From Candidatus Latescibacterota bacterium (lineage in GTDB: Bacteria > Latescibacterota > UBA2968), in contig OZ240241.1 of the NCBI GenBank assembly GCA_965198115.1, forward strand, positions 3,136,001 to 3,200,000: DNA of 64,000 nucleotides, in the 5' to 3' direction. The position numbers and the translations under genes are program-made. The notes beneath the pieces are model-generated. The model was not told the DNA's origin, did no database searches, and was given only the letters and a program-made list of their open reading frames with translations. Positions 56,284 to 64,000 of this stretch are shown in pieces (the first letter of the stretch is position 1; every line of letters begins with the position of its first letter).

Positions 56284-56924
56284 GTCATGACCTCCGGCAA
56301 AGCCGGAGGCTTGAAAACTTGTGAACCGCTCAAAGCGGTTGGAAACCAAGCGCCACCTAAAGGTGGCGATTACCTGAAAATGTTGAGCTGGTCGAGACGC
56401 CGGTCCTCCCGCTCCTGGTTCTGGATATACTCCCGAACCGTCTGTTCATCCTTGCCAACGGTGGAGACCCAGTAGCCTCTTGCCCAGAAATGCTGCCCGG
56501 TGAAGTTCGACCTGCGTCCCAGATAGTTCCGAGCAATGTGAATCGCACTCTTTCCTTTGATGAACCCTACCGTCTGAGCTACTGAGTGCTTCGGCGGGAT
56601 CGAAATCAGCATGTGCACATGGTCGGATCGCAGGTGACCCTCTTCCACACGGCATTCCTTCTGTGCGGCCAGATCCCGAATCACCTCGCCCAGATAGCGA
56701 CGAATTTCACCATACAACACTTTTCTACGATACTTCCGAACCCAAACAACGTCATACTTGCACTCCCATACCGTGTGACGTAGACTCCTTACGTTGTTCA
56801 TTAGAGAGCCTTCCTTCCGTGTGCTTTGAGCGGTCCACGGCAAGGGAGGCTCTTACATATTTCTGGAACTGTCAAACTCTGGGAGTCTCCCCGGCAGAGC
56901 CGGGGGCTTACCAAGGTTTAGTTA
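56284..56924 (-). mobile_element. IS200/IS605-family IS (TnpA only), copy 2
   Basis: Same hairpin ends as copy 1; both copies read TAAC at the minus-strand left end and TGAC at the right end. Confidence 0.92.
56370..56801 (-). CDS. tnpA: IS200/IS605 Y1 transposase TnpA
   Basis: DHVHML (HUH), FWARGYWVSTVG, VREYIQNQE. Confidence 0.93.
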   Translation of the reverse strand: MNNVRSLRHTVWECKYDVVWVRKYRRKVLYGEIRRYLGEVIRDLAAQKECRVEEGHLRSDHVHMLISIPPKHSVAQTVGFIKGKSAIHIARNYLGRRSNFTGQHFWARGYWVSTVGKDEQTVREYIQNQEREDRRLDQLNIFR

Positions 56925-59401: not shown

Positions 59402-60124
59402 TCAAAGTTTCAACTTCAGTCCTACGCCGACACCCCACCCGTCGAGAATCGGGTTGGTGTCTTCAAATTCATTGTAGCGTGCTTCGATCACCAGATCGAA
59501 AGCATCGTTCACTCTGATACTGAGCTGCGATTCAGTCACCCAGCGATTAGGCGCATTCTCTCGGACATTCAGATCCGTAAATCCGGCCAGTCCGACTCTC
59601 TCTCCCAGTATGAATGAATGAATCACGCTGGCTTGCCATCCGGAACCGTCTGTCTCTATTGGGTGAACGCGCCACTGGACCCAACTTTTCCCCGATCTGA
59701 CCACCGCGTGTTTGAACGTCACACCTGGCCTCAGCAGATCGTTGCCCTGTCCATTGAAGTCATTGTACTCGATCTCCACTCCCAAGCCGTCAAACAACCA
59801 ATCGGCGACGATCGGTTTCCTTAAACGGAATTCGATGAAGTAACGACTCAGATCGAATCGTTCGTTGCCATCATTCTGGTTGCCGTGAAGATCCACGAAT
59901 CCCCAGAGGTTCATCCCCCCTGGAAGGGCGCGTGGAGTCACAAGAATGTTGAGCGTATTGTAGGATCTCGTGTCGAGATAGTAGGTGAGCGTTGCGGCTA
60001 CCGGTTTCGCTGCCCTGGCCGTTCCGTGAGCAAAGGCCAGGCCCAAGAGCAGGAGCATCATACCGAGGTCAGCCAGACGTGAATCTCTCCTCAACTGGCA
60101 GCCCCGGCGGGGGAGTGCGATCAT
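59402..60124 (-). CDS. Putative outer-membrane beta-barrel protein (Tsx/DUF5020-like), start uncertain
   Basis: Signal peptide ending AHGTARA; alternating beta-strands (WGFVDL, GFTDLN); C-terminal GVGLKLKL. Confidence 0.55.
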   Translation of the reverse strand: MIALPRRGCQLRRDSRLADLGMMLLLLGLAFAHGTARAAKPVAATLTYYLDTRSYNTLNILVTPRALPGGMNLWGFVDLHGNQNDGNERFDLSRYFIEFRLRKPIVADWLFDGLGVEIEYNDFNGQGNDLLRPGVTFKHAVVRSGKSWVQWRVHPIETDGSGWQASVIHSFILGERVGLAGFTDLNVRENAPNRWVTESQLSIRVNDAFDLVIEARYNEFEDTNPILDGWGVGVGLKLKL

Positions 60125-60513
60125 TTATCCAGCCGATTCGAGGCGTATTCGCGCCACCCACCCCACGATGTGATCTCACCCTTCCCACGGCAGATGTGCG
60201 GCTCGCCCAGCACCCCAAGCACTTCCTCTCCATCGGATAACGTGATCCGACCGATGCAGAGTCCGGGGGGCTCCTGCAAGAGCAGCGTGGCCCCACCTTC
60301 GGCGGGCACTTCCCAGATTTCGAGGGCTATCTCAGAACCTCCGGACTCTGTCTTCATCATAGCCGGGTGAACGTCGTCGATGGACCACAGCTGGTAGCAC
60401 GATGCCGTATGGGCTTCGCGGCGGAACTTTGACCCCAGGCTCGTGAGATTCCCATTCAGCGCCAATCCGCGCATCAGTGTTCCGTTCACCGCAAGTTCTA
60501 CGAATCTTTTCAC
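60121..60513 (-). CDS. Stand-alone allophanate hydrolase C-terminal domain (GGCT-like fold) protein
   Basis: LAVNGTLMRGLALN, EIWEVP, EPPGLCIG, EITSWGGWREY. Confidence 0.82.
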   Translation of the reverse strand: MKRFVELAVNGTLMRGLALNGNLTSLGSKFRREAHTASCYQLWSIDDVHPAMMKTESGGSEIALEIWEVPAEGGATLLLQEPPGLCIGRITLSDGEEVLGVLGEPHICRGKGEITSWGGWREYASNRLDK

Positions 60514-60603
60514 AGAGCTCCTCCACCGGACATCTGCCTGAAACTAACAAGTGGCCATTCGATCGAGATCTGCGCTGACAAAAGGCCCCGATGATGGCTT
60601 GAG

Positions 60604-62811
60604 CTAGCCACCAGACCCGACGCCCTTGGGGAGCGTGAAGTAGAATGTCGTTCCTCTCTCAATCTCAGACTCGACCCAGATCTCGCCCCCGTGCCGTTCG
60701 ACGATTTTCTTGCATAGCGCCAACCCGATGCCGCTGCCCTCATACTCTTCGCGCGTGTGTAGTCGCTGGAAGATCTGGAAAATCCGCTCCGCGTGTTTCG
60801 AATCCATTCCGATCCCGTTGTCCTCGACTCTGAAGACCCACCAGGCATCTTCTTCCGTTGCCGAAATTCTGACGCGTGGGCCCTCCTGACCGCGGAATTT
60901 GATGGCGTTTCCGATCAGATTCTGAAACAGTTGCACGAGCTGTCCTTCATCGCCCGGAACGACTGGCAGCGGGTCTCGCTCGACGAGGACGCCACTCTCA
61001 TCGATCGCCAGCGTCAGATTAGCCAGCGCTTGATCCAGAAGGGAGCCGCAATCCGTAGGAACGGGCGGTTTACCGCGCGTACCTACCCTCGACAGTTGAA
61101 GCAGATCGTTGATCAACCCGGACATCCGTTCCGCTCCATCGACGGCGAAGTCTATGAATTCTCCGGCGTCATCGTCCAGCTCGTCCTTGTAGCGTCGTTC
61201 CAGAAGTTGGAGATAGCTCGACACCATCCTGAGGGGTTCCTGGAGATCGTGAAACGCCACCGAAGCGAATTGCTCCAGGTCGGCATTCGACCGTGCGAGC
61301 TCCTCCGTCTGACGCTCCAGATCCCGACTCGAAACTTCCAATCTCTCCAGATCTTCAACTCGCGAAATCCCGACCGAGAAGATTTTGGCCACCTGTTCGA
61401 TCGTCATCAAGTCCGACGTAGAAAATGCACGCGCCTGGACACTGAGGACTGATATGACCCCGTTGGGTATCGGAACCTCTGCGCAGCTGCGGACGGGTAG
61501 CCCGCCGAACTTCTCTTTCAAGTTTTCCGCTTCCTCCGGATAGCCACGTACAAGGTCCTCCTCGTAGGTCAGCTGGCCGTCTTGCCACTGCCGGGTCAGG
61601 GAGGTCGCTCTCCGTTCCTCTCCTGCCGTAAGAGTCCCCTCTTGTCCAACCCTGTAAGTTTGAACAAGGCTCTCGTCCGGATTCAGGATCCTGTGGATCG
61701 CCATGGCGTGGGCATCGACGCCCAATTCCTACATCTCCTTCAGGCAGGTCTGGATGACCTGTTCCAAATCTGCAGGGCGGGCGAGATCCTGGACCGCTCC
61801 GCTGATCCTGACCAAGGTCGCGCCCTGAGTTGAGCATCGACTTCGGCACTTTGTGCCCTCCGCCTGGCCTCTTCGGCGTCCTCCATCATGTTGAGCGCGG
61901 CGGTTCTCGAATCTCTCAGGGACTCGTTCAGAAGCTTCAACTCCTGCTGCGCCTTTTCGCGCTCGGCGATTCCCTCTTCCAGCTCCCGGTTGATCTGTTC
62001 TGTCGCTTCAGCGGACCGTTGGCCTCTTGTGAGGTCTGCCGGAATCGGCTGACGACGAGCCCCAGACCCAGCAGCCCCAATGTTGTCATCGCCGCCAGCA
62101 AACCAACGGTTCCGCTCATGCCCTCTCGATGCTGTGTAGAAACACTCTCCACCGGACGGATGACCTCGAGAACCCCCCGCACGTCACCCGTCTTCCATCC
62201 CTTCTTGGGCGTATCGGGATGCGTGTTGTGACAGGAGACACACTCGGGTCGCATGAGATCAGCCGTTGCATACCGCAGCGAGAGCCGTCCCTCGTATTCC
62301 TCCATACGGTAAAAGGGCACCTCGGGATTCTGCCTCAAGAACGTCAGAGCCTCCTGCTCGAACTGATCTTGAGGGCCGCCTTCGGCCTCCCGCCACGGGA
62401 ACGGGTAGTCACTGTATAGACGGGTGACCCCCCGGTGCCCTTCCCAGCGATGCGATTTCCAAGTAGCATGCTCAGCGTCGCAGGAAGCGGGATCGCCTTT
62501 TCTCGGGTTGCATAGTCGTGAGTGATTTCAACATCGTGACCGACGACCCGAGACACGACCTCGGAGGTATAGAGGGTGCGGAATTCCCTCAACGCCTGGG
62601 AATACAGGTCCGCGTCCTGTATGGCCATCGTTCTGATGAGGTCGGACTGAAGGTCGAACGTGTACCACACCATACCGGCCAATCCCACCATCCCCAGACA
62701 GAACATCGTGGATACGACGAGGACTACCCTTTCCTGGAACAGGCCCAGTATCCTGGACAAACCCGTGGACGTTTCTGTGAGCTACCCCTTGATCCCTTCA
62801 CGATCATTCAT
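60604..62811 (-). pseudogene. Sensor histidine kinase with a periplasmic DUF3365/Tll0287-like heme-c domain and GAF, broken by frameshifts and stops
   Basis: FRTLYTSEVV, IPLPAT, RLYSDYPFPWR, CVSCH..WKTGDVRGVLEV, HDLQEPLR; shifts near 62430, 62020, 61825; in-frame TAG at 62782 and 61729. Confidence 0.82.
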
Positions 62812-63039
62812 TTCGGGCCTCAATGTCCGGTTCCGCAGACGAAAGATCATAGGGGGCCGATCTTCCGGCTTCGGTTGCCAACTCGTTCACTTGCTGCTTT
62901 AGCTCGATCATCTTCAGTTTACGACCGTTGAATTGTTCCAGCTCGGCATTCGATCGACCCAACTCCTCGGCCTGCTGTGCAAACTCGTCTTGCGCCCATT
63001 GTCCTCGATCAGAAGGACCTGAATGTCCGTTGAACTCAT
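62804..63039 (-). pseudogene. Internally deleted response-regulator gene
   Basis: MSSTDIQVLLIEDN joined out of frame to ELGRSNAELEQFNGRKLKMIELKQQVNELATEAGRSAPY. Confidence 0.65.
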
Positions 63040-63080
63040 GAATCCCTCAGTGTTACGGGTCCGTTGCTGGATCGCTAATG

Positions 63081-63096
63081 AGCACCCTTCGTGCCA
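63081..63096 (-). promoter_or_regulatory. sigma54 (-24/-12) promoter
   Basis: TGGCACGAAGGGTGCT about 40 nt upstream of the ATG at 63039. Confidence 0.65.
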
Positions 63097-63170
63097 CTGA
63101 GCACGACCCTCTGAACCAGTCTTAAACGGTGTATTAACAATTACATATACGCTGTTTCTTTACGCAACAC

Positions 63171-63188
63171 GTGGCGGATTTCCGCCAC
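63171..63188. promoter_or_regulatory. Palindrome, candidate enhancer (UAS) for a sigma54 activator
   Basis: GTGGCGGA-TT-TCCGCCAC, separated from the promoter by an AT-rich IHF-like tract at about 63120-63150. Confidence 0.5.
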
Positions 63189-63222
63189 CTGGTCGCCTTC
63201 TGGTGGAGGTAGGCGCACGCAG

Positions 63223-63275
63223 AAAAATGGGGCACGATGCAAACGCTCCGATCAGAGCGCTTCCATTGTGCCCCA
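63223..63275 (-). terminator. Long hairpin plus U-tract
   Basis: TGGGGCACAATG..CATCGTGCCCCA then TTTTT on the minus strand. Confidence 0.55.
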
Positions 63276-63355
63276 ACGACGTGATAATTAACCAGCTTAC
63301 GACGGTGTGTCAAGTCAATTAGGCCCATTCGGGCCCGCGCGTTCTCCTTACTAAA

Positions 63356-63897
63356 TCAGTCGCCTCCACCTCTCCTGAGAGCTTCCCACCGATCCACGGG
63401 GGTCAGGAAACCCGGTCAGGGGTGCTCTGCGGGACGTCAACCCGTGACGAGCCCCAGCACGTGGGGCAGAGCTCGCATCTCTCAGCCAGGGACCGCAAAC
63501 AGCCCTGAAATCAGGAAAGAGGGTCCCAGATGAACCAGGGTGAGGATCACGATCCCCCCAGCCGTCATCCCCAGGGTCGGCCCAGATGGATCTCCCGCTC
63601 TTACCCATTCGGCCAGGGCCGCGGCGATCAGTGCGCCAACGGCCAGCACTCGAATCCGATTTCCCCAAGCCACCCCGTACGCAACGTTGACCACCAAGGT
63701 GCACGCGTAAACGCAGAATACCAGTCCCAGCAAGAAGGGGGCGCTGCGGGAACGCCTTCTGTCATCAGGTGATTGAATCCGCGAGCGGTCATCACGAGGC
63801 CATAGATTGTGGCCAGGCCCATACCAATCCGCAGCGTGCGTCCGATAGGCCCGGGTTTCTGGATGGATCCGGGGGGCAGGAACTGGTCGTCAGCCAC
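63356..63897 (-). CDS. Small membrane protein, candidate selenoprotein with in-frame TGA codons; 1-base frameshift at the G5 run 63737-63741
   Basis: KPGPIGRTLR, about 4 TM, then SFLISGLFAVPG*EMRALPHVLGLVTG*RPAEHP*PGFLTPVDRWE; hairpins follow the first and third TGA. Confidence 0.6.
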
Positions 63898-64000
63898 CTT
63901 ATGTTCTCACACTCATAGTTGGATAGTCCCCTTCGGAGAGCGAACCGACACCAAGACTCTGACGTCGGGGCCTTGCCTGACATCCGCTTTCAAACCCAAC

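Follow-up and report, generated by a model that had tools for sequence, protein, structure and literature searches.

A frameshifted gene copy from Latescibacterota points to an apparently uncatalogued family of membrane proteins with two putative selenocysteine codons

Near the end of a 64,000-nucleotide stretch of DNA from a Candidatus Latescibacterota bacterium (the window; its genome is G000 below), an open reading frame on the minus strand ends at the TGA 63482-63484. The locus raises the question of whether this TGA ends the gene, marks a lesion, or is a selenocysteine (Sec) codon. A sequence-only reading of the stretch had proposed the last of these, a novel membrane selenoprotein with two Sec codons.

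The frame runs on through TGA 63437-63439 and TGA 63416-63418 to TGA 63356-63358, and its tail reads AVPG-stop-EMRALPHVLGLVTG-stop-RPAEHP-stop-PGFLTPVDRWE before the terminal TGA. The final stop is thus also a TGA, a point on which the earlier reading was silent; its claim that the sequence past the first TGA is protein-like is borne out by the match to a family HMM. The N-terminal part, with its GTG at 63895-63897 and a GPIGR motif, is found in a different frame from the C-terminal part. Because the N-terminal half matches HMM positions 5-52 and the C-terminal half positions 50-176, a one-base deletion is placed in the C-run 63737-63741, where one C had indeed been said to be missing from a run of five. 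With this base restored, both halves align without gaps to an intact copy in G005, a genome from the same taxonomic family as the host. The parts of the window copy are as follows.

63742..63897, minus strand: N-terminal part with GTG start, GPIGR motif and the first predicted membrane helix (HMM positions 5-52, E 3.6e-6).
63737..63741, minus strand: C-run with the one-base deletion, a frameshift whose exact base is not determinable; identical in contigs of the runs X1, X2 and X3.
63359..63736, minus strand: C-terminal part with predicted membrane helices two to four and the tail that carries the two Cys/Sec sites (HMM positions 50-176, E 1.2e-36; model of the G005 protein).
63482..63484, minus strand: TGA at conserved Cys site 1 (PG-x-EMR), a putative Sec codon inherited from an intact ancestor.
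63451..63467, minus strand: SECIS-like hairpin 1, loop 63457-63461 (CGTGC), loop start 20 nt after the TGA, G in the second loop position.
63437..63439, minus strand: middle TGA at a variable, mostly Arg/Lys position, a probable nonsense lesion.
63416..63418, minus strand: TGA at conserved Cys site 2 (EH-x-x-PG), a putative Sec codon.
63373..63408, minus strand: SECIS-like hairpin 2, loop 63392-63396 (TGGAT), loop start 19 nt after the TGA, G in the second loop position.
63356..63358, minus strand: terminal stop TGA, about where relatives end.

The read-through C-terminal part used as a query retrieved one homolog, whose outer sites are both Cys and whose middle position is Arg, in keeping with the argument made earlier that two coincidences of Cys and TGA would go beyond chance. 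With the homolog protein as the starting point, 58 genome loci were found, most of them in Gemmatimonadota, Acidobacteriota and Proteobacteria; cultured carriers of a Cys copy include Paraglaciecola arctica, Kordiimonas aquimaris and Kangiella shandongensis. Cys stands at site 1 in 58/58 of these loci and at site 2 in 55/58, the loci having been fetched with six patterns, one of which included the site-1 Cys; TGA 63482 and TGA 63416 thus fall on two conserved Cys, as the earlier reading had proposed. HMMER yielded 310 family representatives at 50% identity. The family is predicted to consist of membrane proteins of about 180 residues with four membrane helices. None of 50 aligned members matches a meaningful Pfam or NCBIfam (20.0) model at E 0.1, and the ESM Atlas gave only unnamed clusters, under 0.9.

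TGA at the Cys sites is also found outside the host genome. In G005 the gene is intact, with TGA as the codon of either Cys site and CGT between them; a six-frame search of 168 genomes of the phylum turned up no carrier besides G005 and the host. A metagenome pattern in which site 1 alone was fixed matched 26 loci; 16 of these were chance matches, dropped after HMM scoring, and in the ten homologs the free site 2 is TGA in nine and TGT in one (L086). Six-frame searches of 401 genomes around each of G168, G171 and G170 added four two-TGA copies (G557, G444, G171 and G597), and G171 also holds Cys paralogs. In total, 14 other intact or contig-cut loci have TGA at both sites and one has TGA and TGT, which is the pairing that the earlier reading had proposed to look for in homologs. 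The six-frame matches of at least 90 bits number 27 (nine weaker matches from the 401-genome searches, including G473 and G1010, were excluded from the stop count). Outside G000 they contain 11 in-frame TGAs, of which ten lie at the two Cys sites, always paired (G005, G557, G444, G171, G597), while the remaining one falls on a Trp-like position of a duplicate copy (G640).

The TGA proteins are mostly 27-56% identical, with one pair at 84%, and in a quick tree the TGA label needs seven changes, only two of them forced by strong branches. TGA members checked by accession look-up stand in protein collections as unnamed truncations of 137-140 residues. Among the 150 of the 310 representatives that were listed, 15 end exactly at the PG before site 1 and three just before site 2; the codons of these shortened proteins are not visible, and at least two duplicate loci already counted. 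A distant subfamily (L102 in G473, L127 in G1010) has a TGA at site 1 (PG-U-E[QR]T) and Cys near site 2, followed by a different hairpin of 7 bp further downstream. Both selA and tRNA-Sec were found in G1010, and neither was found in G473, a 3.1 Mb bin whose relative with the site-1 TGA scores 20 bits. Some members are fused at the C-terminus to a second membrane domain (P0016, P0034, P0057, P0105 and P0107, four of which have a C..RxHC motif) or to a DF-like thioredoxin domain scoring below its cut-off (P0031, P0073 and P0092).

A bacterial SECIS element is described as a loop of 3-9 nt with G in its first two positions, 16-37 nt from the UGA, on a stem of at least 4 bp (PMC13188914). The SECIS-like hairpins that the sequence-only reading had placed after each outer TGA are present and fit this consensus, with loops at +20 and +19 and G second. 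In the family register (loop at +19/+20, with G among its first two positions), a stem of at least 5 bp follows site 1 in 12/12 TGA rows against 6/58 Cys rows and site 2 in 11/11 against 16/55, with a register that was chosen after the first TGA rows had been seen and with rows that are related. It is also found in 4/4 copies found later, against a background of 211/1653 true terminal TGAs. After site 1, the codons CCC CAC GTG NTG GGG are fixed to their third positions in 11, 12, 12 and 12 of the 12 TGA rows, while these third positions are scattered in the 58 Cys rows.

Other measures separate the two classes less well. In the general 16-37 nt window, TGA and Cys rows are not separated at 4-5 bp, and plain MFE folding is too blunt: of the 12 TGA rows 8 and 7 passed it, and of the 58 Cys rows 12 and 11. 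The stability of the window hairpins does not exceed that of shuffles (z 0.44 and -0.25). Across rows, covariation is absent from hairpin 1; hairpin 2 shifts register between rows and covaries in one of two registers only. In L086 a 5-bp stem is scored behind site 2 even though this site is Cys.

The machinery for Sec insertion, which the earlier reading had wished to see confirmed, is encoded in G000: selA, selB, selD and selC (tRNA-Sec) are all found, and selD itself has an in-frame TGA. The five other TGA genomes (G005, G557, G444, G171 and G597) all have tRNA-Sec, together with selB in G005 or selA. Since selA occurs in 19 of 22 genomes, and Sec machinery also in most Cys carriers tested, this co-occurrence discriminates little. 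An alternative genetic code, in which TGA would encode Trp or Gly, found no support: tRNA-Sec is present, 1653 long ORFs terminate in TGA, and it is Cys that aligns with the in-frame TGAs.

The TGAs of the intact copies are almost certainly read as selenocysteine, judging from the pairing at the Cys sites and the hairpins behind them. Each TGA would be recoded by SelB and tRNA-Sec by way of its own in-frame SECIS, the two elements lying 66 nt apart. That the TGAs are instead ordinary nonsense mutations of Cys codons in decaying genes is highly improbable: a single substitution does turn TGT or TGC into TGA, and decay is seen in the family (the TGA at a Trp-like position in G640, a TAG in G168), but the TGAs come as a pair in 14 genes or fragments that are open apart from them and stem from at least three phyla-level searches, and the codons that encode the hairpin are fixed. 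The proposal of a novel membrane selenoprotein with two Sec codons is thus supported by the intact relatives, whose TGAs would be the Sec codons, while the window copy itself has no intact frame.

The window copy is very probably a frameshifted pseudogene of an intact Sec-type gene. With the frameshift, its expected product has 89 residues only. For the middle TGA, two origins had been left open, a lesion and a third recoded codon. The position is variable, never Cys in 57 Cys loci, and an Arg codon in 10 of the 11 TGA-type relatives, which makes a change from CGA to TGA its simplest likely origin; the stem behind it has only 3 bp in the family register, which is no family hairpin, and of the two proposals a lesion is the better reading. 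Weak signs of decay are a branch length of 1.4 against a median of 0.62 in the quick tree and a leave-one-out HMM score that is second-lowest of 26.

The earlier suspicion that the copy is decaying thus agrees with the frameshift and the middle TGA, both of which are present in contigs from two samples. Contigs of the public runs X1 and X2, both from one sample, and of X3, from a second sample of the same study, have neither a substitution nor an indel at the lesion sites and are identical to the window wherever they cover it, including the C-run and all three TGAs, where a check at 63437 and 63737-63741 had been advised; X1 and X2 may be the source data of the assembly, and X3 is shallow (depth 2.4-6.4). 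The comparison is able to see indels, since it reported two about 4.5 kb away. An assembly error as the source of the lesions was rejected, the same lesions being found in contigs from two samples. A TAG reported within EF-Tu was considered as a sign of sloppy assembly and rejected as well, this TAG being the terminal stop. It is hardly credible that the copy is still expressed by means of a programmed frameshift and a third recoded TGA; both outer TGAs and both hairpins are intact and the lesions are identical in two samples, but neither the frameshift nor the middle TGA occurs in any intact TGA-type relative, and the missing hairpin, the long branch and the low score also speak against it.

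The pseudogene has no mer neighbours; next to it are a glyoxalase-like gene and a sensor-kinase region. The glyoxalase-like gene (PF13468) is intact, continues on the minus strand from window 63913-64000 to L097:10609, and ends 15 bases upstream of the pseudogene start. Transposase-like ORFs flank the region on both sides (window 56370-56801, minus strand, IS200-like by eye, and, beyond the window, L097:14328-16703, with two high-copy elements at a contig depth of 700-2800 against 10). No Rfam match was found in window 60000-64000, and a plasmid collection gave no match. Elsewhere in G000, far from the window copy, there is a czcCBA-like efflux cluster with a fragmented czcA; the remnant of a merR behind it breaks off after about 28 codons (G000:C1:6346704-6352014). 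This is a decayed metal-resistance island. The window copy would have decayed along with the loss of its mer neighbours. The genome also encodes a thioredoxin-like protein with a TGA in a UxxC motif (G000:C1:7747526-7747960, plus strand), a homolog of which is found upstream of several Cys family copies, and an array of 20 tRNA genes (G000:C1:2870558-2872531, minus strand).

The sequence-only reading had suggested thiol/selenol redox or heavy-metal handling at the membrane as a role. Gene context favours the latter, and specifically mercury, over redox: a mer-type neighbour (merR, merT, merP, merA, merB or a GDCCVxC-type gene) lies within about 3 kb in 40/58 Cys loci, as scored with neighbour seeds that were taken from the Cys loci themselves and checked in NCBIfam. 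The individual counts are 31 for MerR-like proteins, 27 for MerT, 20 for GDCCVxC, 13 for MerP/HMA, 12 for MerA and 4 for MerB; merA, merT or merB is found within the same distance in 31 loci, and 18 have no mer-type neighbour. The family gene is often the last in a merR-merT-merP-merA order or stands directly before merB. The MerA cut-off is passed by 8 of 13 flanking reductases, and MerB is the best match for both MerB-like proteins. None of 16 MerR-like neighbours passes the MerR cut-off, 13 of them being best matched as MerR and three as CadR or CueR. A neighbourhood control gave 0/300, but this control is weak because it was drawn from G000, where no MerA passes the cut-off and neither merA nor merT was found.

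A mer-type neighbour is found at 5 of 11 TGA loci, several of which lie on short contigs. Their neighbours are often CopZ-type chaperones or MerA-like reductases below the cut-off; the G444 copy has merA and a merT-like gene just upstream, and in G005, which is 89% complete, no MerA passes the cut-off. The GDCCVxC protein (NF041374) that regularly adjoins the Cys loci (20/58, L009-L066) is small, and its family is on record only as a hypothetical selenoprotein. In G005, the gene two places downstream of the intact copy encodes a signal-peptide HMA-domain protein with two TGAs in its CxxC motif (UxxU; L096:5366-5929, plus strand, G005:C639); its match to NF041115 is weak, 30 bits where the cut-off is 95. 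A metal operon that also includes MerTP, ArsR and a chaperone of the CopZ type encodes a 343-residue barrel-like protein with an N-terminal GQ-U-PL-U motif (two TGAs; L081:1641-2669, plus strand), which has no NCBIfam match and is a candidate for a further new selenoprotein.

An AlphaFold2 model of the G005 protein (pLDDT 92) has helices at 17-39, 53-73, 81-101 and 107-134, followed by two tail helices. Hydropathy and positive-inside counts of Lys and Arg favour an N-in/C-in orientation. Among soft-metal ligands, strong conservation is limited to residues 139 and 161, the invariant His159, the near-invariant His123 in helix 4, and Cys30 in helix 1 (61% of rows; G005 numbering). Since both termini are predicted to be cytoplasmic, residues 139 and 161 and His159 would lie in a cytoplasmic tail.

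On this basis, the reading that we somewhat favour is that the family is a two-Sec membrane protein family acting as a membrane-bound mercury relay in mer-type systems. The product of intact TGA members would be an inner-membrane protein of 180 residues, two of them selenocysteines. Together with His159, residues 139 and 161 may form a cytoplasm-facing, two-coordinate Hg(II) site of two thiolates or two selenolates. This site would take Hg(II) that arrives through MerT, is released by MerB, or comes from the membrane, possibly by way of His123 and Cys30, and would then hold it or hand it to MerA. Selenium would raise the affinity of the site for Hg. The affinity between Se and Hg is strong, and it has been argued, in the available text of one preprint, that reliance on selenoproteins for resistance is an odd design (10.1101/2022.07.06.499078).

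A rival reading, in which the family is a membrane thiol/selenol redox protein or a handler of Cu, Cd or Ag and the mer link reflects shared metal-resistance islands, is unlikely. It would account for the TGA copies that stand beside CopZ-N-type chaperones, ArsR, HMA and czc-like genes, for the MerR-like neighbours best matched as CadR or CueR, and for the fusions to a thioredoxin-like DF domain (below cut-off), and most selenoproteins are redox proteins (PMC13188914). The gene is nevertheless often found directly after merA or directly before merB, and the two sites are 22 residues apart and lack a CxxC motif.

It is also tentatively conceivable that mer systems of marine, soil and sediment settings have in this family a core part that went unrecognised, with a membrane fold of its own, the two-Sec form being a selenium-based Hg trap. 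If this is true, two selenolates would lock Hg(II) at the inner membrane, and in some bacteria mercury defence would take place upstream of MerA or without it.

Quite unlikely, finally, is that the two-Sec family takes up mercury by itself, as a transporter that replaces MerT, MerC or MerF and moves Hg(II) or organomercurials across the membrane. It would fit the four predicted membrane helices, the near-invariant His in helix 4, the Cys in helix 1 in 61% of rows, and some loci (L017, L052) that have merR, GDCCVxC, the family gene and merB with no merT nearby; MerE uses His besides Cys (PMC5715351, available text). The first helix, however, lacks the vicinal Cys pair that MerT and MerE need according to the same text, profile similarity to MerT is absent (probability 0.4%), and the gene co-occurs with merT in 27/58 loci.

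The mercury relay favoured here would resemble, in its action, an accessory membrane protein of mer systems, and it can be compared with known families. MerT, MerC, MerE, MerF and MerH (PF02411, NF010314) are, like the family, small inner-membrane proteins of mer operons with Cys and His ligands, and MerC and MerH have four helices (PMC3466566, available text). Sec forms of mercuric transporters (NF045683; 'putative mercuric transport protein' in PMC13188914, Table 1) have Sec in place of Cys, as in the family. Like the MerT-type proteins, the family is encoded in mer operons (31/58 Cys loci), which is not so for the window copy. It differs from them in having a single helix-1 Cys (61% of rows) where a pair is required (PMC5715351, available text), in giving no HMM match for any of 50 members (Pfam and NCBIfam, E 0.1; 0.4% with hhalign to MerT), and in the placing of its two Cys/Sec sites, which stand in a C-terminal tail at a distance of 22 residues and have a hairpin apiece. 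The UxxU metal-binding protein (NF041115) and MbdU (NF045648) likewise have two Sec, inferred metal ligands and a metal-resistance context, but the family is predicted to be integral to the membrane, does not match these models and has no UxxU or CU motif. The GDCCVxC (seleno)protein is uncharacterised, Cys-rich and has Sec forms as well, while it is soluble, about 70 residues long and unrelated in sequence.

The DUF6410-like tail named in the sequence-only reading stands in part. None of 50 family members passes the gathering threshold of DUF6410 (PF19948) or matches it. A bridging group with a PGCEV..C..SPxDW tail does match the N-terminal part of DUF6410, one of four members over the cut-off, and aligns with the family over 145 columns at 97% probability. 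As far as sequence profiles tell, the family is thus a remote homolog of the bridging group, which weakly matches the DUF6410 N-terminal part, and is not a DUF6410 member. No PF19948 members were found in G000, G005 or G557, and DUF6410 is not named in the literature searched. DUF6410-like PGCEV proteins are encoded near the family gene in G784, G700 and G640 (L105, L106, L107 and L112), which suggests tandem paralogs.

A sequence search of solved structures gave a best E of 0.11. In a fold comparison, Foldseek returned nothing with E < 0.4 and the best Z was 5.0 over 65-96 residues, a comparison of helical bundles. The family is not recognisable among the 119 prokaryotic selenoprotein families of PMC13188914, Table 1, and it is not described in the available text of PMC13326102, PMC12013277, PMC13745706, PMC8261052, PMC3466566, PMC5715351 or the Haft and Gwadz preprint. 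It is a real family of membrane proteins, very probably with two Sec, which is tied to mercury-resistance loci and apparently uncatalogued, being absent from PMC13188914 Table 1, NCBIfam 20.0 and Pfam.

The window copy itself is a fossil, and its value lies in its intact relatives. The family would add a two-selenocysteine integral membrane type to the prokaryotic selenoproteins, and a mer-operon gene that is outside the gene lists of two mer surveys, as far as their available text goes. The family occurs naturally in Cys/Cys, Sec/Cys and Sec/Sec versions, and truncated forms beyond these are suggested by 18 database proteins. Because of these natural versions, the family offers a direct test of the part that selenium plays in bacterial mercury handling, where the strong affinity between Hg and Se could either help or poison a relay.
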